A DNA stretch of 64,000 nt. Source: a virus. Taxonomy: Duplodnaviria; Caudoviricetes. The translations under genes were made by a program, and so were the position numbers. Below, one piece after another: positions 14,315 to 50,857 of the stretch. The notes beneath the pieces were generated by a model. It searched no databases, was not told the DNA's origin, and saw only the letters and a list, made by a program, of their open reading frames with translations. Location: IMG/VR virus record IMGVR_UViG_3300030708_002798, one strand, 5' to 3'. Positions within the stretch are counted from its first letter, which is position 1, and the number at the start of each line of letters is the position of its first letter.

Positions 14315-14397
14315 GTGCTTTGTTTGAACTGAAGTCAGTATAAAGGTTGGGACATGCCCGTGCTCAGTCACCTGTGCCAGTCATTTTAGTGGCACAG
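14315..14397 (-). promoter_or_regulatory. Early promoter cassette copy
   Basis: TGTGCCACT-N6-ACTGGCACA ... TATACT ... ATG. Confidence 0.7.
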
Positions 14398-14960
14398 TGT
14401 ACGAACTTTGTCAGGGCAAATCTGTCAGTCTCCACAACTGGTGTGACCATATGTTTAACCCAACCAGGGAACATCACACATCGATTTGTTTTACTTTTGA
14501 TATAAAGATCGTGCTGTTCAAAGTAAAGATCTCCACCACCTCCAGTATCTTCCTGAAGTGTCCAGGAAACCAATACATTAACCCAACAATCTTGATGACT
14601 TAGATAGTCTTCTCCAGGTGCATATTTTCTTATCTTCGTATGATCTGAATCTGACCTTAATACTTGTTCCCAAAATTCATGATCTTTTGCTATTGATTCC
14701 CAAAATGGTAGAGTAAACAACCGTTTGGAACTGATTGATAAGATGTCTGAAACATTTCTATTGTTGTAAACATCATCTAAAGATAGACCAGTCGAATCGG
14801 ACAGATATGTCCCATCATCATTCTCTGCTCCACCATAAGATGAAGGATCACCAAACTTTGGGAGTAAGAAATTAAACTCCCTCATGATTAGTTCTAGTTC
14901 TTCATCACTGAAGTAATCATCGATGATGATATGTGGAAATGGAGTATCACTGATATTCAT
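14364..14960 (-). CDS. 2OG-Fe(II) oxygenase
   Basis: YLSHQD, GGGDL, FPGWVKHMVTPV, DRFALT. Confidence 0.8.
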   Translation of the reverse strand: MNISDTPFPHIIIDDYFSDEELELIMREFNFLLPKFGDPSSYGGAENDDGTYLSDSTGLSLDDVYNNRNVSDILSISSKRLFTLPFWESIAKDHEFWEQVLRSDSDHTKIRKYAPGEDYLSHQDCWVNVLVSWTLQEDTGGGGDLYFEQHDLYIKSKTNRCVMFPGWVKHMVTPVVETDRFALTKFVHCATKMTGTGD

Positions 14961-15156
14961 CGTCTTGCTGATTCATAATATCTTGAACGGTGTCCATAAA
15001 TTCATCTGCATCAGATAGATTATCCAGTGCGTGAATCATTTCACCTAATGATTTCACAATAAATGCTTTCTCGTTTCTTGCAGCAAATGCTAATGCTTCA
15101 CGAAGGTGAGTTTGTGCTGAATCAATCTCACCCATTACTTGTTCTGATAATGCCAT
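14947..15156 (-). CDS. Conserved cyanophage hypothetical protein
   Basis: MALSEQV...LREALAFAARNE motif. Confidence 0.65.
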   Translation of the reverse strand: MALSEQVMGEIDSAQTHLREALAFAARNEKAFIVKSLGEMIHALDNLSDADEFMDTVQDIMNQQDDEYQ

Positions 15157-15158
15157 GT

Positions 15159-16634
15159 TTATACTACCCAGGTAATCATACTGTATCTAGTTCCATCTGT
15201 AACAGGAAGAATTTCATGAGGATACATGAAATTAGATGGGAAGACTAAAACATCACCAACATCTAGTTCATGAACTAGTTCTCTTTGGAACATAGCAACT
15301 TCACCACCTTCATAAGCATTATTCATCGCGATGATGATAGTCAGTGCTCTAGGTTGCTCCTTAAATGAATCTGTATGCTCAATATAGAAGTCACCAACTT
15401 CATAACGTAGAAGTTCATATCCACTATCTTCACTAATTTCTAGTTCAAACTCAGGATGTTCTTTTACATATTCGTCAATAATATCTTTGACGATCTTGAA
15501 CATTTTATTATCAATTTCTCTACGGTAATCATTATTTTCATTGATACACCGTTGATCTGAGATAGTAATTACCTGACACTTTCTTGCTTCTTCATCAAGA
15601 CCAGATCCAGTAAATGTTTTCTCCCACAGTTCAGATCTTGCATACTCTTCCAGAATCTCATCACAAAAATCTGGATCAACAAACTCTTCTTTGACCATAA
15701 TAAAGTCTTTTAGAGACTTCTGTGACAAAGAACCAGTTTTTTCTTTTGCTTTATCTGATTCAACAGGTTTTGCATTTGATTTCTCTAGAAGAGAATTATA
15801 TTTCTTGTTAAAGATAACAGCATCATCTAAATCATAAAACTCTTCTTCATCATCTCTAGTCATAAATCCAGCACCATTATCACTTTCAAAATTGATAAAG
15901 TTTGTGCCAGTCTTTTCCTCAACGATGGTGAAATCATCTACATCATCTGCTTTTTTAATAGCATCATCAACTTGCTCTTCTACTTGTTCTCGCATCCAAC
16001 GTGGGAGAATAGTTTTTTCACTCATATCTTCAAAATTGATTCGTCTCATTTCATCATACTCCTTTTTGAGTTGTGGTATGTCATCTTCAAGATCTTTTAT
16101 TTTATCGAAAACTGCTTCACCATTCATACCACGACTTCTGACATAATGCAAGAAGAATTGGGTATAATTAGTTCCTTCAAAAGTATCCCTCCAATGTGGA
16201 GCAATACAACCTAAGTACATCATTGCATCACCAGGGTTAAGATTAACACATCTATCTTTTCCCTCGGATGTTGTAATCCAAATTGCCCATGGTTTATCAC
16301 CACCCAAATGTAAGGTCATTGAGATCTCACATGCTGGACGATCTGTATGCTTAATTAACTCATCACCCTTACGATAAATTCTAGAATAAACATATGTTGG
16401 TAATACTGTCTCTCCTACAATTTTACTTACTTCTGGTGTTTTATTAGCAAGTAATTCTAATGCGGGCAAATAGTTATATACTGATGAAGAATGAGGTGCC
16501 TGAGGATCCCCAGGAAACTCATACATTTCATCAGTAATATGAAACTCTCGTTCTAACCTTTTTGCTTCTTTAGGATCGATAAAATTAGGAATAACAAGAT
16601 AATGATTCTTTAGTAGTTCACCATTCACAATCAA
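15159..16634 (-). CDS. Two-domain 2OG-Fe(II) oxygenase with acidic linker
   Basis: N-domain KHTDRPACEIS...PHWR...FLHY; C-domain EHTD...GGEV...FPSNFMYPHEILPV..GTRYS. Confidence 0.85.
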   Translation of the reverse strand: MIVNGELLKNHYLVIPNFIDPKEAKRLEREFHITDEMYEFPGDPQAPHSSSVYNYLPALELLANKTPEVSKIVGETVLPTYVYSRIYRKGDELIKHTDRPACEISMTLHLGGDKPWAIWITTSEGKDRCVNLNPGDAMMYLGCIAPHWRDTFEGTNYTQFFLHYVRSRGMNGEAVFDKIKDLEDDIPQLKKEYDEMRRINFEDMSEKTILPRWMREQVEEQVDDAIKKADDVDDFTIVEEKTGTNFINFESDNGAGFMTRDDEEEFYDLDDAVIFNKKYNSLLEKSNAKPVESDKAKEKTGSLSQKSLKDFIMVKEEFVDPDFCDEILEEYARSELWEKTFTGSGLDEEARKCQVITISDQRCINENNDYRREIDNKMFKIVKDIIDEYVKEHPEFELEISEDSGYELLRYEVGDFYIEHTDSFKEQPRALTIIIAMNNAYEGGEVAMFQRELVHELDVGDVLVFPSNFMYPHEILPVTDGTRYSMITWVV

Positions 16635-16645
16635 TCACCTCTCAT

Positions 16646-17992
16646 TCACTTTTCCTTATCCAAGACTTCTTTAAGTGCAGCAAACCATTGAACTGCTTTA
16701 TCTACTGGGAATTGATTTTCTTCTCTTTCATCATCTGTCAGAGTAGTATAGAACTTCTCAGGATCAATATCAGTCATCATTTGAACAATATCATTGATAC
16801 TATGCTCAGTTTTAGATGTTTGTCTTTGATTAAAGAACTCAATGTCATCAACAGCCTGCTCGATAGAATCAGTTCTTATTTCAAGATCTTCCATCTTAGA
16901 TTGCTGCATTTGCCTATACTCTTCTTCAAAGATTTCAAGATTATCAGGTAGCATGAAGTCTGCTTCATCTTGAATATCTTTATCAAGTTCAGCAGCAACT
17001 AAATCTTGCTCAAGTGATTCTCTTGCTCTAGCAATTTCGTCAAGTTCTTGTTGCTTAATCAACTCAAACTCTTCACGTTCTGCCTCAAGTCTTGCCATGG
17101 TAGTATCACGTTCTTGACGGATTTCTGCAAGATCAAACTCCATCTCTTCAACAGTTGCTTCAAGATTTCTTGTTTGAATCTCCATCTCAAGACGAGTCTG
17201 TTGAATACTCTCTTTCTCAAGATCTTCCCATGCTTCAGCAACACGACGTGCTTCTTCACGTTCTTCATCTTCACGTTGAATCTGTGCCTGAACAGCATCA
17301 TATTCTGCTGAAATCTGATCTCTTTCTTTCTGTAGAAGTTCATTATACATCTTGCGTTCTTCCATGAACGCTTCCTTTTCCTTCTCAAATTCTAATAGAA
17401 GATCATCAAACTTCTTCTGCATATCCTTATTGATCTTTTGGATATACTCCTCAACCTTCATTACTTTAGCAGCAGTAAGTTCTTCCTCATACTCTAGTTG
17501 TTTACGTCTTTGTTCGATCTCTGAGGTTCTTTCTTGGAAATTTCGTTGCTCTAGTGCAGCAGCAAGTTCATCATTTAGAATATCATTCTGATCACGAATT
17601 TCTCTATTCTGCCTTTGAAGATCTTCAATGAAAGCAATCTGTGCTTCTTGTTCTACTTTATCAGCAACGAGTTCTTCTTGCTCTGATGCAATTCTTTCTT
17701 CTTCTTCGATTGCTTCTTCTAGTTGCTTTTGCTCAAAAGCAGTTAGAAACTCAGCATAAAAATCTAAGTAAGGTTGAACAATAGTATTGAATTCGTCTTC
17801 TCCGAAGATCTTATTGGGAACTGGTTTCTCACCAATTACATCTTCATACTCAAGTTCACCACGTCCATCTCTCCATTGAATAGCATGGATGTGACTGTCA
17901 TCAAATTCCCACCGAATATCATCATCATCGAGATCTACAGTTCTCTTATCAACAATAATTCGTTTGTCTTCTGGAATAATAGTTACTCTCAT
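16646..17992 (-). CDS. Putative fibre-assembly protein: small N-terminal domain fused to a long acidic coiled coil
   Basis: N-terminus MRVTIIPED...IHAIQW...GELEY; remainder is E/Q/D-rich with heptad character. Confidence 0.55.
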   Translation of the reverse strand: MRVTIIPEDKRIIVDKRTVDLDDDDIRWEFDDSHIHAIQWRDGRGELEYEDVIGEKPVPNKIFGEDEFNTIVQPYLDFYAEFLTAFEQKQLEEAIEEEERIASEQEELVADKVEQEAQIAFIEDLQRQNREIRDQNDILNDELAAALEQRNFQERTSEIEQRRKQLEYEEELTAAKVMKVEEYIQKINKDMQKKFDDLLLEFEKEKEAFMEERKMYNELLQKERDQISAEYDAVQAQIQREDEEREEARRVAEAWEDLEKESIQQTRLEMEIQTRNLEATVEEMEFDLAEIRQERDTTMARLEAEREEFELIKQQELDEIARARESLEQDLVAAELDKDIQDEADFMLPDNLEIFEEEYRQMQQSKMEDLEIRTDSIEQAVDDIEFFNQRQTSKTEHSINDIVQMMTDIDPEKFYTTLTDDEREENQFPVDKAVQWFAALKEVLDKEK

Positions 17993-18416: not shown

Positions 18417-19712
18417 TCAACCTGTAAACTCACACATGATAATATCAATGTATTGAATCCTAAGGTTGATTGGACTTGTAGTTGTGGAATACCCACCATC
18501 ATCTTGTAATAGATGATCATGAGATTGTCCTCCACCAATAGCAGATGATGCTGGTCCTTGAGTATTTGCACCTCTCATAGTACCACCAGGTGTCAATGTT
18601 CTCTGTGTTACCCTGACAGATGTTGTCTGTGGATAACGTTGAACAACACGATACTGACGTGGTTGTCTATAAGATGCAGTGACTCTTTGAGGTACAGCAA
18701 CTCTGAATGGAATTTGAGATCTAACATCTCTTCTCTGTCTTACAGAGTATCTTACTCTAAAGGAGAATGGTCTTCTACTTCTAAAGTCTCTCCTCTGTCT
18801 TCTAGGTTGCGGTGATCTACCACTTCTAGGTTGACGGAAAGATCTTCTCTGACGGAAAGAACGTGGTTGTCTTGCCTGTCTACGTTGTCTCCAACCTACA
18901 GGGTTTCTCCATGATCTTCTCTGTCTAAATGGGAATCTATCTCTTTGCCTTCTACGTCTTCTTCCCCATCTTCTCCTTCTTCTTCTTGGAGCTCTTCTAT
19001 CACCTCTATTACTACCTCTATTATCTCTTGGTTGTCTAAAAGGAATAGGTCTTCTCCACCTACCAATATCAGCACGGAAACTAATAGGTCTTCTAGATCT
19101 AACAGGTACTCTAAAGTTGAATGGAAGTCTTACATTAAATGGTCTTCTAGATCTTGCCTGCCTTCTTTGTCTAGCATTTCTAGGTTGTCTGACTCTAAAT
19201 GGGTTTCTAGATCTATTTGACTGACGATATGTTCGTGGTTGTCTAATTTGTCTGGGTTGTCTGAATTGAATCTGAACACGAATGTTCTGACCAACTCTTC
19301 GTGCTGCTCTAACAGCATATGATCTAGGTTGTCTATTTTCAGTACGGAATGGACTTGTACCAGCAGATGATCGAATTGTTTCTGCACTACCACCACCATG
19401 CGTATGTGATGGTAATTGTTGAACAGTTAATGTTGTTGGATCAACATTTACATCTGCAAATTCTCCTTGAGTTACATCAAATGTACCTGTAGTAGGGAAG
19501 ATACTACTAAATGTTCCATTTCCTCCAGTACCACCACCAGATCCAGTTACAACTCTCAGTGATTTATTAGTATGATCAACAACTTTTGTCCATCCGACAG
19601 GTGTTGTGTTCTGATAAAAGAACATCCTTCTATCTTCTGGAATAATACCAAATCTAGAATCTAAACTTGTATTATTACCAAAGTCAATGCCACTTGCGTT
19701 TAATCTTGACAT
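18417..19712 (-). CDS. Tail collar / HxH needle-type fibre protein with a ~250-aa arginine-rich insertion
   Basis: Paralogue of 19722..20249 at both ends (P.GWTK...LRVV.G.GGG; PTTLT.QQ.PSHTH; GGGQ.H.H; LR.QYID.I.C); residues ~121-372 are R/Q/P-rich. Confidence 0.75.
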   Translation of the reverse strand: MSRLNASGIDFGNNTSLDSRFGIIPEDRRMFFYQNTTPVGWTKVVDHTNKSLRVVTGSGGGTGGNGTFSSIFPTTGTFDVTQGEFADVNVDPTTLTVQQLPSHTHGGGSAETIRSSAGTSPFRTENRQPRSYAVRAARRVGQNIRVQIQFRQPRQIRQPRTYRQSNRSRNPFRVRQPRNARQRRQARSRRPFNVRLPFNFRVPVRSRRPISFRADIGRWRRPIPFRQPRDNRGSNRGDRRAPRRRRRRWGRRRRRQRDRFPFRQRRSWRNPVGWRQRRQARQPRSFRQRRSFRQPRSGRSPQPRRQRRDFRSRRPFSFRVRYSVRQRRDVRSQIPFRVAVPQRVTASYRQPRQYRVVQRYPQTTSVRVTQRTLTPGGTMRGANTQGPASSAIGGGQSHDHLLQDDGGYSTTTSPINLRIQYIDIIMCEFTG

Positions 19713-19721
19713 TTATCCTCC

Positions 19722-20249
19722 TCAATTAAAACTGCAAAGAATAACATCAATATATTGAACCCTAAGATCCAAACTTCCACTGTATGGTGCAGGTGAACCT
19801 GAAAATGGGTGAGTGTGACCTTGACCACCACCAGCAGGACCAGTTGCAGGTGCTTGAGTATTTACTCTTCTACCCTGAACACCAGGAGATCCTGGACTAA
19901 CTGTTACAGAAGAACCAGCATTATGTGTATGTGAAGGAATTTGTTGTGTAGTTAATGTTGTTGGACCAACAGTACCACTAGCAGTAAATGTACCACTGAA
20001 AGGTCTAGTAGTCATAATGGTTGTGAAAGGTGATCCTCCAGGACCAGCAGTTCCACCAGAACCAAAACCACCACCAGTGCCACTAACAACTCTCAGTGCT
20101 TTATTATCATGAGTAGTTACTTTAGTCCAAAAATTAGGAGCAGTTGTTTCATAAAAGACCATGACACTATTTTGAGGAATAATGTCATATCTAGAATTTA
20201 GTTCCGTACCATCACTAAAATCGATACCACTAGCATCTAACCTTGCCAT
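19722..20249 (-). CDS. Tail collar / HxH needle-type short fibre protein
   Basis: TTLTTQQIPSHTH...GGGQGHTH...LRVQYIDVILC, typical of phage collar/needle tip proteins. Confidence 0.75.
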   Translation of the reverse strand: MARLDASGIDFSDGTELNSRYDIIPQNSVMVFYETTAPNFWTKVTTHDNKALRVVSGTGGGFGSGGTAGPGGSPFTTIMTTRPFSGTFTASGTVGPTTLTTQQIPSHTHNAGSSVTVSPGSPGVQGRRVNTQAPATGPAGGGQGHTHPFSGSPAPYSGSLDLRVQYIDVILCSFN

Positions 20250-20270: not shown

Positions 20271-20277
20271 TATTTAT
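20271..20277 (-). promoter_or_regulatory. T4-type late promoter
   Basis: ATAAATA directly upstream of the two needle genes. Confidence 0.55.
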
Positions 20278-20940
20278 TTATCCGATATTAAATGCAATAG
20301 ATATTCTTTCTTGCTTACTAAAATGTGGAGTTACATAATGTGCCAAACATGAAGGCATCAAATAAACAGTTCCAACTTTAGGTCGTATAGAATACTCACA
20401 GTTCTCATCAATTTCTGCATAGGCAACATTATGATTCATTGGATCTTGCCTTAAAACAGTGAAAACACCTTCGTTTTCTTTCAGATTATCAGGAACAGCA
20501 GGATAATATAGACCAATTATAGCACATCCAGGATGAGTATGATATACATTATATCCCATACCTTCATTGATATTGATCCACCAACCAATACCACCATCAT
20601 GAGGTCTCCATTCTGACCCATTTTCTTCCATCATATGTGCAGTAAGATCTACAACATTTCGTGCAAGATTCTGAATATGTGGAGTTGTATAAGGTTTGAT
20701 CTCATCAAGTTCATATGGATAACTTTGCCAACCACCTCCATGATTTGATTTTGTCACACCTCTAGGATACATTCTCCTCAAGTCATGACATTCTTCTACA
20801 ATACTTTCATTGTCAATATCTAGATCAAATTCATACAAATAAGTTGGAAATATGTTATTTGCTTCTTTATTCTTGATAGGTATTTCAGTAAAAAAGTTAT
20901 CACCGAAGTTACCATGATCTACTAACTTGTGTTCAGTCAT
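20278..20940 (-). CDS. 2OG-Fe(II) oxygenase (TIGR02466-like)
   Basis: SN.GGWQS, WININ...NVYHTHP, HYVTP...ERISIAFN. Confidence 0.8.
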   Translation of the reverse strand: MTEHKLVDHGNFGDNFFTEIPIKNKEANNIFPTYLYEFDLDIDNESIVEECHDLRRMYPRGVTKSNHGGGWQSYPYELDEIKPYTTPHIQNLARNVVDLTAHMMEENGSEWRPHDGGIGWWININEGMGYNVYHTHPGCAIIGLYYPAVPDNLKENEGVFTVLRQDPMNHNVAYAEIDENCEYSIRPKVGTVYLMPSCLAHYVTPHFSKQERISIAFNIG

Positions 20941-21682
20941 CGTCTTCGCAATCTGGATTTACAAAAAAGAATACTTGATTGATTCTATATTCAGCATTAC
21001 TCCAATGCTCCGCAAAATAATTCTCACCAGTTAAGTTCATGCTATGGTAGTAGAAACTTCCTTCAAACATAACAAATCGATTAAATTTTGATCGGAATGA
21101 TGCAAAAATATCCCAATATCTTTTAGGAGTCCATGGAATACCATGCTCATCTCTTACACCACCATTCTCATCTAATGGCAAAATATCAGGATTGTCTGTG
21201 ATAAGTGGTTTATATAGATTCGTTCCAATTTCTTCATTCTTAGTAAGATAGCAAATACCATTATATCCACTATCATGATGTGGCCACCAATAATGTGTTT
21301 TATATGGATTTGTTTCTTGATCTTCAGAGAATCTAGTATAATTTGTGACAATATCATTATCTGTCGGTTCTTGTCCGCACAGATCTGCTAACTTATCTGT
21401 AACATCTTCCATGCCAGGATGTGACATCATATGTCTACGATCTTCAAAATATAATGTATTTTTTGAAGTCTTTCCTGGATCCCATTCAGGTCCAAACTTC
21501 CAAAGTGGTGGAGTAAATGAATTGATATATTCAAACACATCATCAGGATGTTTATAGAAATTGTCCATCCAATATAGATTTGATACTTTATCCCCGTCAT
21601 AAATTGGGATGACTTTCATGTTTGAAAAATCATTAGTTTCAAACAATTCATGTTCAGTTCTTGGGGTAGATTTCAATTTCAT
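20933..21682 (-). CDS. 2OG-Fe(II) oxygenase-like protein (DUF6445-like)
   Basis: DNFYKHPD, WPHHDS..NGICYL...GTNLY, KFNRFVMF...HSM...RINQVFF. Confidence 0.7.
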   Translation of the reverse strand: MKLKSTPRTEHELFETNDFSNMKVIPIYDGDKVSNLYWMDNFYKHPDDVFEYINSFTPPLWKFGPEWDPGKTSKNTLYFEDRRHMMSHPGMEDVTDKLADLCGQEPTDNDIVTNYTRFSEDQETNPYKTHYWWPHHDSGYNGICYLTKNEEIGTNLYKPLITDNPDILPLDENGGVRDEHGIPWTPKRYWDIFASFRSKFNRFVMFEGSFYYHSMNLTGENYFAEHWSNAEYRINQVFFFVNPDCEDDD

Positions 21683-22254
21683 AAAAACATTTCCTCTATT
21701 TTCTTATTGTCAAGGCAGAAACCAAATACCCACAAAATTCTTGGAGTATTGCCATATGTTGGAGTAACTTCATGATGAACTTCAGATACTTGATAAATCA
21801 AAAGATCTGTAGGATTTATATCATTATATTTTACACCACCAATAACAGTATGTCCACCCCTATCTGCCTGCTGCGTAATGGCATTGAAGTGAACAGTTTT
21901 TGTATTGGGATAGTATGTAGGATCAATATGATTATCTATTCTTCCACCATTATATCCAATTCCATTTACAATACCTTGACTGTATGATGGAGGATGATTG
22001 TAATCTTCTAAGTGAAAGTAATTGACAATTCTTTGTCTGACAATTTGTGCAGCATTAGGATAATCTATATGAGGAGCAACTGATTCGTTTGGAAATCGAG
22101 TTGTAAATCTAGTACCAGGATTATCTGGATCCATATTAGCATCCTCAAAGAAATCTCGATGACAATTATCGAGAGTCCATTTGTTTAGTTTATTAACATC
22201 TTTCTCAAACAAAAAATTTCTAAGAACAAGAACCTTAGACATCATTTGTTGCAT
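21679..22254 (-). CDS. 2OG-Fe(II) oxygenase
   Basis: NHID, GGHT, HHEVTP..G..PRILWVFGF. Confidence 0.75.
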   Translation of the reverse strand: MQQMMSKVLVLRNFLFEKDVNKLNKWTLDNCHRDFFEDANMDPDNPGTRFTTRFPNESVAPHIDYPNAAQIVRQRIVNYFHLEDYNHPPSYSQGIVNGIGYNGGRIDNHIDPTYYPNTKTVHFNAITQQADRGGHTVIGGVKYNDINPTDLLIYQVSEVHHEVTPTYGNTPRILWVFGFCLDNKKIEEMFL

Positions 22255-22912
22255 ACTCAGAGTATTCTGCGTCTATACTATTTTCTTCTTCAAAATTCAT
22301 AGCACCATATTCTGCTGCCATATTAAATGACAAAATCACTCGATCAACATTACTGGTATTTGGTGCAGTATAATGCAGAACATATGATGGGAAGATGATT
22401 AGTGATCCTTCTCTGATTCCAGGTGGAACAAAATTTGTAACCTGATCATCCGCAACATTAGGATTCATGAATACTGTGGGTGTATGATACTTGGGATCAA
22501 ACTGAATGAAACATACAGCACTGAAACCTTCTACACCATGATTATGAACAGAGTGCTGCTTTCCCTTTTTTGCTTTCTCAAACCATGTAGTAGAAACTTC
22601 AATGGCACATTCAAAAGTATCAGATAAAGTCTCTAGTTCTTCTCTAAAAATATCAGTGATTACATCACTATAATCAATATCATTGTCATAGTTGTAATGA
22701 TAATCAGTCTCTACATCATGACTCTCTTCTTTTCCACATGCAATCTTAAATTTATCACGTTGTTCTTTTCTGCTCTCATACATCAGAACAAGTTGTCGTT
22801 TTTTCTTTTCCCAATTATTCACTTTTAAGTGAAAAAGTGGAGTAGAAAACATTGGGATAAGATAGTCTTCACTACCTTCTGGTGGATCAACGTAAAGATC
22901 AAAGGTTGACAT
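22235..22912 (-). CDS. 2OG-Fe(II) oxygenase (TIGR02466-like)
   Basis: HSVHNHG..GFSAV, EGSLIIFPSYVLHY..PN...RVILSFN. Confidence 0.8.
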   Translation of the reverse strand: MSTFDLYVDPPEGSEDYLIPMFSTPLFHLKVNNWEKKKRQLVLMYESRKEQRDKFKIACGKEESHDVETDYHYNYDNDIDYSDVITDIFREELETLSDTFECAIEVSTTWFEKAKKGKQHSVHNHGVEGFSAVCFIQFDPKYHTPTVFMNPNVADDQVTNFVPPGIREGSLIIFPSYVLHYTAPNTSNVDRVILSFNMAAEYGAMNFEEENSIDAEYSEYATNDV

Positions 22913-50751: not shown

Positions 50752-50763
50752 TCATCTATTTCA

Positions 50764-50848
50764 TAGGAGTAGAGAGACTTGAACTCTCACGGGCATAATG
50801 CCCAACAGATTTTAAGTCTGGTGCGTCTACCGATTCCGCCATACTCCC
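50764..50848 (-). tRNA. trnL: tRNA-Leu (anticodon TAA); no intron, CCA not encoded
   Basis: GGGAGTA acceptor stem, D-arm GGCGGAATCGGTAGACGC, anticodon arm CAGA-CTTAAAA-TCTG, long variable arm GGGCA-TTA-TGCCC, T-arm GAGAG-TTCAAGT-CTCTC. Confidence 0.95.
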
Positions 50849-50857
50849 AAGGGAGGA

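Follow-up and report, generated by a model that had tools for sequence, protein, structure and literature searches.

In the receptor-binding tips of T4-type fibres, represented by the tip of gp37 (collar, needle and head) and the receptor-binding domain of gp12, three chains bind metal on the threefold axis through histidine-x-histidine (HxH) motifs. Zinc coordination by these motifs has been described for gp12 (PMC3004832), and in gp37 the chain runs to the distal head and back (PMC10579305). The solved structures closest in sequence to the protein considered here are the Photorhabdus PVC fibre (9QGO) and the tail fibre of Pseudomonas phage Pa223 (9NXK). We analysed a 64,000-nt stretch of viral DNA (IMG/VR record IMGVR_UViG_3300030708_002798; Duplodnaviria, Caudoviricetes), referred to below as the window, in which a 431-residue protein, P0001 (the long form), carries such a tip domain interrupted between its two HxH motifs by an arginine-rich, lysine-free insert. 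The locus combines a known fibre-tip scaffold with an undescribed structural element and a co-varying acidic partner protein, and the insert probably forms a long out-and-back projection.

The window phage is a T4-like cyanomyovirus akin to Synechococcus phage S-SCSM1 (Kyanoviridae), which holds the same gene pair in the same context: open reading frame (ORF) 244 (178 aa) and ORF245 (421 aa, QFG06509.1, annotated as "short tail fiber protein"). ORF245 is the orthologue of P0001, with the same insert in the same register and within the same six-gene module; the two long proteins are collinear across the whole insert at 59% identity and differ in length and at the apex, which reads RRRGGRRRR in ORF245 and RRRRRRWGRRRRR in the window. 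The paper on S-SCSM1 makes no mention of an arginine-rich insert (PMC9602691), and our full-text literature searches found no described arginine-rich fibre of this type. A first-pass annotation of the window, made from the sequence alone, had stated that no fibre like this was described, which is true of the literature searched, although the gene itself had already been deposited as ORF245.

The tip-domain assignment comes from profile comparisons of P0001 and its 175-residue neighbour, P0002 (the short form). A profile of the short family matched 9qgo_A, the PVC fibre, at E 8e-8 (residues 244-420) and 9nxk_A, the Pa223 fibre, at E 4e-4; both HxH blocks align in the two matches, as do the APxGW and GGGQxHxH blocks. 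With the same profile, the long form gives a match split into two pieces (E 1.2e-49), and the paralogues align at both termini with 52% identity, in agreement with the earlier description of P0001 as a copy of its neighbour carrying a large insert between the HxH motifs. These motifs fall exactly where they had been placed, at residues 103-105 and 398-400 of the long form and 107-109 and 145-147 of the short form; all 34 long forms keep H103, H105, H398 and H400, and all 41 short forms keep the equivalent residues. The authors of the S-SCSM1 study obtained HHpred values of 99.2-99.5% to gp12, gp37 and gp10 (99.2% for gp12) which, with the two structural matches, bear out the fibre-tip identity first proposed. 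Against single T4 sequences, hhalign returned no significant match (gp12, E 0.29, with only the H445/H447 segment aligned; gp10, E 0.72). Neither paralogue has a Pfam match at E<=1 or reaches the threshold for membership in Gp10_C (PF21939) or Collar (PF07484), and although Gp10_C was seen in seven of 41 short-family members (best E 0.018), none reached the Pfam gathering threshold. In PHROGs the only match, to "tail protein", was weak (E 0.007), and ESM Atlas neighbours belong to tail-fibre, Gp10_C and Collar clusters, the latter two as leads only. Foldseek searches of the PDB with the long and short monomer models produced no usable match, which is expected because the models are monomers of obligate oligomers; the AlphaFold2 model of the short paralogue was itself poor (predicted local distance difference test score (pLDDT) 58). 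By sequence comparison, then, the scaffold is an HxH fibre-tip domain akin to the curated Gp10_C and Collar families, although membership in either could not be demonstrated.

This tip superfamily comprises 5427 representatives at 50% clustering, and its domain occurs as a stand-alone protein of ~170 aa, at the C-terminus of fibres reaching 1087 aa, and tandemly repeated three times in a chain of ~580 aa. In the T7-like Roseobacter phage CRP-361 it ends a 914-aa protein encoded in the tail-fibre position. The window protein shares with the T4 tips the paired HxH motifs, and may share their trimeric, metal-clamped architecture. It departs from them in three respects: P0001 has no long N-terminal shaft, an arginine-rich repeat is absent from the T4 tips, and these end distally in a globular head or a His/metal needle. 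The domains of 9QGO and 9NXK likewise differ, as they sit at the C-terminus of longer fibres and have an inter-HxH segment of ~50-60 residues that is not basic. The inter-HxH loop of the short paralogue (residues ~117-126) contains SPGSPGVQG, a collagen-like X-Pro-Gly run, and an oxygenase of family PF13640, resembling prolyl 4-hydroxylases, is encoded in the same module.

The long tip gene is genuine and not an artefact. Its frame is fully open, with a GAGGAGG ribosome-binding site 4 nt 5' of the ATG. A search spanning 5.8 billion proteins recovered at least 34 metagenomic clusters with the insert (412-498 aa) from independent ENA, JGI, Tara and Logan assemblies, delivering the family that the first-pass annotation had proposed to look for in viral metagenomes, and more remote split forms of 411-516 aa came from an exhaustive profile search. 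The same 431-aa gene recurs (78-93% identity), as does the wider family (33-59%), and because these occurrences come from independent assemblies and from cultured S-SCSM1, misassembly is excluded. A wrong-frame artefact was also rejected: the insert has 5-7 stops in the +1 frame and 32-40 in the +2 frame, the reverse-strand frames contain 15-43 each over the gene, and substitutions in the arms of the insert (defined below) are skewed to synonymous sites between close relatives. On one JGI contig (L010, 6523-8019), the recorded gene call lists only a 72-aa fragment and misses a 498-aa arginine-rich gene, so family members are probably under-counted in protein databases.

Residues 121-372 of the long form contain 87 Arg (34.5%), no Lys, 6 Asp and 1 Glu, exactly the counts first reported, and the motifs RQPR, RQRR and RSRRP occur eight, six and three times. 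Other long ORFs of the window average 4.0% Arg and 5.0% Lys, a background against which more than one-third Arg and no Lys over 252 residues is far from chance. The RRRRRRWGRRRRR core occupies residues 243-255, with W249-G250 at nt 18963-18968, and lies within ~2 residues of the point halfway between the two HxH motifs, again as originally noted. A DNA-level tandem repeat was rejected as the origin of this composition, since Tandem Repeats Finder detects only two trivial short arrays, a 39-nt period-3 run (the poly-Arg core) and a 27-nt period-9 run. The first-pass annotation had likewise argued against a simple DNA repeat, but the Arg codons are less evenly mixed than it had stated: AGA accounts for 67 of the codons (77%, versus 62% in the window background), followed by CGT (12), AGG (6) and CGA (2). 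The sole tRNA gene in the window is a tRNA-Leu(TAA) (50763-50849, minus strand); the window has no tRNA-Arg(TCT) despite the 67 AGA codons of the insert.

At the protein level the insert repeats a six-residue unit (hexad), R-(Q/V)-(P/R)-(R/x)-(S/N)-(F/Y). Across the aligned family, Arg fills position 1 in 84-95% of hexads, positions 2 and 3 are Q/V and P/R, position 4 is often Arg, position 5 is S, N or P, and position 6 is typically F/Y (F, Y or V in ~50-75% of cases). Arginine autocorrelation peaks at lags of 6, 12, 18 and 24 residues (1.55-1.71 times the expected value), a beta-type period-2/6 signal is present, and 18 Arg positions are invariant across 34 long sequences. The inserts of the 34 clusters together hold 2602 Arg and 6 Lys in 9917 residues. 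Because the genome prefers Lys and a single transition converts AGA to AAA, this imbalance means that Lys is actively selected against, and plain positive charge therefore cannot be the whole function of the insert. Near-total exclusion of Lys over thousands of positions shows selection on guanidinium chemistry, beyond charge, and constrains what the target or partner may be.

Several lines of evidence support, without proving, the proposal that the insert forms a long out-and-back projection. With the 34-sequence family alignment, AlphaFold2 predicts a long antiparallel beta-hairpin in which residues 139-215 pair with residues 281-357 (pLDDT 70-83), with its apex near residue 248. The register i+j=496 brings together 12 hydrophobic pairs and only 5 Arg-Arg pairs, a pattern that returns every six registers. 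Family indels are confined to residues 215-266, and in nearly all relatives, down to ~43% identity, the arms are free of indels. Growth at the centre is balanced: P0032 and P0035, whose inserts are 42-45 residues longer, carry 21+21 and 23+22 extra residues to either side of it, and the balance holds in relatives that are 42-78 residues longer. Where the poly-Arg core is clear, it lies 1-8.5 residues from the HxH midpoint in inserts of 275-367 aa. The ratio of nonsynonymous to synonymous substitution rates (dN/dS) between close relatives is 0.30-0.44 in the arms (0-0.44 in the returning arm), 0.53-0.70 in the termini and 0.83-3.5 in the centre; purifying selection is thus stronger on the arms than on the tip-domain termini, and the contrast between arms and centre fits a host-facing apex on a constrained shaft. 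The hairpin of the first-pass annotation accordingly gains support from predicted strands, centrally balanced indels, the period-2/6 signal and the pairing register. Its dimensions need trimming: the arms are long, but only 77 residues per arm are confident strand (~25 nm), so the 45-50 nm first estimated for ~145 residues per arm is an upper bound.

The same data bear on whether the insert might instead be an unfolded polycationic tether, a flexible charged linker or bristle. Its R/Q/P/S/N-rich composition is typical of disordered regions, and both the single-sequence ESM Atlas model and the centre of the AlphaFold2 model are of low confidence. A tether of this kind would hardly be expected to keep a strict hexad register, 18 invariant arginines and, across sequences down to 33% identity, indel-free arms under stronger purifying selection than the folded termini, or to grow evenly about its centre, and we regard disorder as quite unlikely. 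The conserved C-terminal half of the tip domain 3' of the insert, and again the indel-free arms, argue against another reading raised at the outset, in which the protein would be a precursor releasing Pro/Arg-rich peptides.

For the quaternary arrangement of the predicted hairpin, the gp12 shaft offers a model. Its triple beta-helix has ~6 residues per turn and a hydrophobic interior and requires a chaperone (PMC3004832). The insert has the gp12-like combination of six-residue periodicity and one hydrophobic residue per hexad, and by this analogy a narrow, aromatic-cored and Arg-coated trimeric rod is a reasonable but unproven model.

An exposed Arg/aromatic hairpin could conceivably disorder or enter the host outer membrane and so help penetration, instead of acting as an adhesin, in the manner of cell-penetrating or antimicrobial beta-hairpin peptides. 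The strict preference for Arg over Lys is the pattern of membrane-translocating oligo-arginines, the F/Y/W residues and Pro/Arg motifs recur regularly, and the distal, axial position would suit a needle. The protein has, however, no amphipathic face and no hydrophobic apex, and carries a net charge of +75 per chain; T4-like phages already have a puncturing device on the tail tube; and an apex dN/dS close to or exceeding 1 is more in keeping with recognition of a variable target than with insertion into lipid. A membrane-active needle is, in our assessment, very unlikely.

The neighbourhood of the long tip gene is conserved (Table 1). In every long-form locus read, the gene order is PF13759 oxygenase, one or more short tips, long tip, a Cys-containing protein of ~120-134 aa, an acidic helical protein and a PF13640 oxygenase, an order kept even at 33% identity in an otherwise different neighbourhood. 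S-SCSM1 has the same six-gene module, with ORF244-ORF247 encoding the short tip, long tip, Cys protein and acidic protein. We compared insert and acidic protein over 80 IMG/VR loci and other fetched loci. The acidic protein measures 432-493 aa in 26 loci with an arginine-rich form and 145-316 aa in 28 of 29 short-tip-only loci; the short-tip-only exceptions are one protein of 573 aa and one of 409 aa in L011. Among long-form loci, inserts of 278-299 residues accompany acidic proteins of 432-449 aa, and inserts of 359-368 residues accompany acidic proteins of 480-493 aa. Insert length correlates with acidic-protein length (rho 0.78, 11 clusters, p 0.004), as does the net positive charge of the fibre with the net negative charge of the acidic protein (r 0.73, 11 clusters, p 0.01), the charges being +75/-72 in the window and +65/-62, +64/-65 and +47/-47 elsewhere. 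We had considered that the acidic protein might be exclusive to arginine-rich loci, an idea rejected by its homologues in short-tip-only loci; the co-variation in length and charge survives.

The acidic protein has conserved N- and C-terminal domains of ~60-95 aa each, joined by a central charged helix that ranges across loci from absent (in proteins of 145-170 aa) to ~330 residues. Because its length varies in this way, the helix behaves as an insert that parallels the fibre insert. Its heptad signal is weak, so a coiled coil is not established and a charged single helix is equally possible. Pfam has no family for this protein. Its nearest functional analogues are T4 gp57A, an acidic helical fibre chaperone, and fibritin, the coiled-coil whisker, acidic helical proteins that aid fibre trimerisation or attachment (PMC3004832). 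They are analogues only: neither has detectable homology to the acidic neighbour, which is 145-573 aa long and scales in length with the fibre insert.

The Cys-containing protein (CPLIKKDCVEHKCAW...ENSQQQR...AVESFRNEM; also at L012, 2979-3290, and L013, 2977-3288) lies directly downstream of the tip domain in CRP-361 as well (gp39 followed by gp40), and homologues occur in a Ralstonia phage, in P-SSM2/P-SSM5 and in the S-B05 group. No Pfam model covers it; it probably represents a tip-specific family of assembly helpers or chaperones. Upstream, a (G/T)ATAAATA(A) motif stands 26-43 nt before the first tip gene in the window and 11 other loci, overlapping the end of the upstream oxygenase gene. 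From its sequence it resembles a T4-type late promoter, which would fit a structural role for the genes that follow.

Six predicted 2-oxoglutarate-Fe(II) (2OG-Fe(II)) oxygenase-type genes bracket the module on the minus strand (14364-16634 and 20278-22912), two of family PF13759, two of PF13640 and two without a Pfam match. The Arg/Pro repeat might be heavily hydroxylated by these enzymes, with the modification itself forming the functional surface, a proposal compatible with the other explanations discussed here. PF13759 and PF13640 genes flank the module in every long-form locus examined, also where the wider context differs, and the superfamily includes members that hydroxylate Arg and Pro. 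The PF13640 gene is not specific to the insert, however, because it is also present in L011, the one short-tip-only locus with its flanks read, and cyanomyoviruses carry many such genes of unclear role; we consider extensive modification of the repeat doubtful.

The number of inserts per tip is a separate question. Chains of ~580 aa (P0183, P0185 and P0192 among them) each contain three tandem complete tip domains, the same domain as in P0001 with no arginine-rich insert, and so constitute single-chain pseudo-trimers; they point to possible co-assembly of tandem paralogues. Two or three tandem tip paralogues are encoded at almost every one of the ~80 loci (two loci have a single 274-aa tip protein), and L007 encodes two short forms and one long form. 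Given the fused triple tips and the two or three tandem genes, short:long heterotrimers with one or two hairpins may form. Such a tip would be pseudo-threefold, with each hairpin matched ~1:1 by the acidic protein, and one unit would correspond to three domains as in the fused chains. The translational coupling of the short and long genes and the near 1:1 charge balance per chain listed above also favour mixed assembly. On the other side, T4 gp10, gp11, gp12 and gp37 are homotrimers; long-form termini also change more rapidly than short-form termini, and they do not group with those of the cognate short form. The tree of long and short terminal domains is poorly resolved, and concerted evolution of the two sets of termini within one genome found no support in it. 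A heterotrimer is possible, and we hold it as a tentative alternative to the homotrimeric rod.

Published annotation bearing on virion location comes from S-SCSM1, whose GenBank record carries a "virion protein" note on ORF244; the virion status of this short tip fits a structural role. Its absence from the long tip, taken up below, is one of the points in favour of a quite different reading, in which the insert would be a protamine-like binder of nucleic acid or polyphosphate, acting in the infected cell or the virion interior, with the tip scaffold merely a platform for trimerisation. The insert resembles protamines, arginine-rich cell-penetrating peptides and Pro/Arg antimicrobial peptides in its Arg-only cationic composition, its oligo-Arg runs flanking GG (an oligo-Arg-GG-oligo-Arg core that resembles fish protamines) and its Pro/Arg/aromatic motifs, and if the protein is trimeric, its computed charge density is of the same order as that of DNA, with opposite sign. 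Those molecules, however, are short free peptides or small proteins with no folded scaffold and share no homology with the insert, which is a strictly periodic, 250-370-residue part of a tip domain. We therefore did not assign the protein to a protamine-like class of condensers, its basic region being an insert inside a conserved, folded fibre-tip domain. That domain is a receptor-binding tip found at the C-terminus of bona fide fibres, the gene belongs to a late fibre-type module with a tip helper, and a dedicated acidic partner suggests that the charge is masked from cellular polyanions. A role in binding nucleic acid or polyphosphate seems improbable.

The explanation that we favour, and to which we give somewhat better than even credence, is that P0001 is a late cyanomyovirus HxH tip with an arginine hairpin projection and an acidic partner, acting in adsorption. 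The product would be a late-expressed fibre-tip protein of the T4 gp12/gp37/gp10 HxH type, in which the ~35-residue distal loop between the axial metal-binding HxH motifs has been replaced by a lysine-free hexad repeat of ~280 residues. The repeat would form a beta-hairpin that extends outward for ~25 nm or more and returns, with an aromatic residue in each hexad that could contribute to a narrow hydrophobic seam, the arginines on the surface, and the fast-evolving oligo-Arg/Gly-Gly apex (Trp-Gly in the window) as its distal end. The projection may be made together with, and/or neutralised by, the acidic helical protein encoded two genes downstream, which could serve as an assembly chaperone, sheath or structural mate, while the small Cys protein would be a tip-specific assembly helper. 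At adsorption, the exposed polycationic rod would make avid, guanidinium-specific contact with polyanionic polymers of the host surface. Upon the observed gene and family, with their composition, repeat, conservation, synteny and co-variation, this account builds an oligomeric state, virion location, partner binding and target that we infer.

A number of observations weigh against this account. In the GenBank record of S-SCSM1, ORF245 and ORF247 bear no "virion protein" note, although usable tryptic peptides are about equally numerous in ORF245 (6) and ORF244 (5); the missing flag on ORF245 is the main evidence against a virion location. Outside the arms, in the centre and terminal domains, the AlphaFold2 model is poor (mean pLDDT 51), the single-sequence ESM Atlas model is unstructured (pLDDT 0.37), and structure programs tend to draw hairpins from repeats. 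The Trp-Gly turn of the first-pass annotation is not conserved: most relatives have GG at the apex, some have neither WG nor GG, and some lack a poly-Arg core. Symmetry about the apex, which had been proposed as a test on homologues, is borne out by the balanced indels and the near-central core but not by the P0038/P0172 lineage, in which GG lies ~37 residues off-centre. Acidic homologues with net charges of -14 to -64 occur in loci without any arginine-rich fibre, including the 409-aa protein of L011 and the 573-aa protein, so the acidity cannot be put down simply to the insert; and the co-variation comes from related lineages, with perhaps only two or three independent length changes. For both reasons the co-variation is not proof of binding. 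Finally, the lipopolysaccharide of marine Synechococcus is reported to be phosphate-poor, so an anionic target is not obvious.

A bolder variant of the favoured account, which we think rather unlikely, pairs the acidic protein with the fibre along its length. Here one or three Arg hairpins (~125-145 residues per arm) would project from the metal-clamped HxH tip along an acidic ER/K-type helix of ~290 residues, matched to them in length (~43 nm each) and in charge (+75/-72 per chain pair), to give a two-protein, charge-neutralised composite fibre. It could be a new virion appendage, or the acidic partner could be shed on host contact to unmask the polycationic rod, and the flanking 2OG-Fe(II) oxygenases may tailor its Arg and Pro residues.

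Table 1. Features of the long tip gene and its module in the window (nucleotide positions; residue numbers refer to P0001).
Feature	Position	Strand	Basis or remark
2OG-Fe(II) oxygenase, 491 aa, one PF13640 domain (C-terminal)	15159..16634	(-)	Follows the acidic protein immediately in each locus examined, one of them lacking a long form
Acidic helical protein, 448 aa, net charge -72	16646..17992	(-)	Length and charge co-vary with the Arg-rich insert
Cys-containing protein, 128 aa	17989..18375	(-)	Accompanies the tip domain in unrelated phages
Long tip paralogue P0001, 431 aa	18417..19712	(-)	Fibre-tip domain interrupted by Arg-rich insert; orthologue of S-SCSM1 ORF245
C-terminal half of tip domain, residues 373-431 and stop	18417..18596	(-)	Last strand is the conserved LRIQYIDIIMC
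HxH motif 2, H398-D-H400, inside GGGQSHDH	18513..18521	(-)	Alignment
Lys-free Arg-rich hexad-repeat insert, residues 121-372	18597..19352	(-)	Composition, periodicity, 18 invariant Arg positions in 34 sequences
Returning arm, predicted beta-strand, residues 281-357	18642..18872	(-)	AlphaFold2; dN/dS 0-0.44
Variable centre/apex region, residues 216-280	18873..19067	(-)	Family indels here; dN/dS 0.83-3.5; low AlphaFold2 confidence
Poly-Arg core RRRRRR-WG-RRRRR, residues 243-255	18948..18986	(-)	~2 residues from HxH-HxH midpoint
Outgoing arm, predicted beta-strand, residues 139-215	19068..19298	(-)	AlphaFold2 pLDDT ~70-83; indel-free in nearly all relatives; dN/dS ~0.30
N-terminal half of tip domain, residues 1-120, with APxGWTK and LRVVxGxGGG motifs	19353..19712	(-)	Alignment to short paralogue and family
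HxH motif 1, H103-T-H105	19398..19406	(-)	Aligns with Zn-binding H445/H447 segment of T4 gp12
GAGGAGG ribosome-binding site of long gene	19717..19723	(-)	Overlaps the stop codon of the short gene
Short tip paralogue P0002, 175 aa	19722..20249	(-)	S-SCSM1 orthologue ORF244, flagged as virion protein
ATAAATAAATA, T4-late-promoter-like motif	20271..20281	(-)	28-32 nt upstream of short tip gene; position kept in 12 related loci
2OG-Fe(II) oxygenase, PF13759	20278..20940	(-)	Directly upstream of tip genes in every long-form locus examined

Receptor-binding tips determine the cells that a phage is able to infect, and marine cyanomyoviruses are a major cause of death for Synechococcus and Prochlorococcus; the module described here is widespread in ocean metagenomes (Tara, JGI, ENA). 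A long, strictly periodic, Arg-based projection from the distal tip of a fibre, accompanied by an acidic partner that co-evolves with it, would be a solution unseen in model phages. The cultured pair of S-SCSM1 and Synechococcus WH7803 makes the question directly testable. If true, whether as a hairpin or as a composite fibre, the structure would be a new building block of phage fibres and a natural, very long, arginine-coated beta-ribbon.

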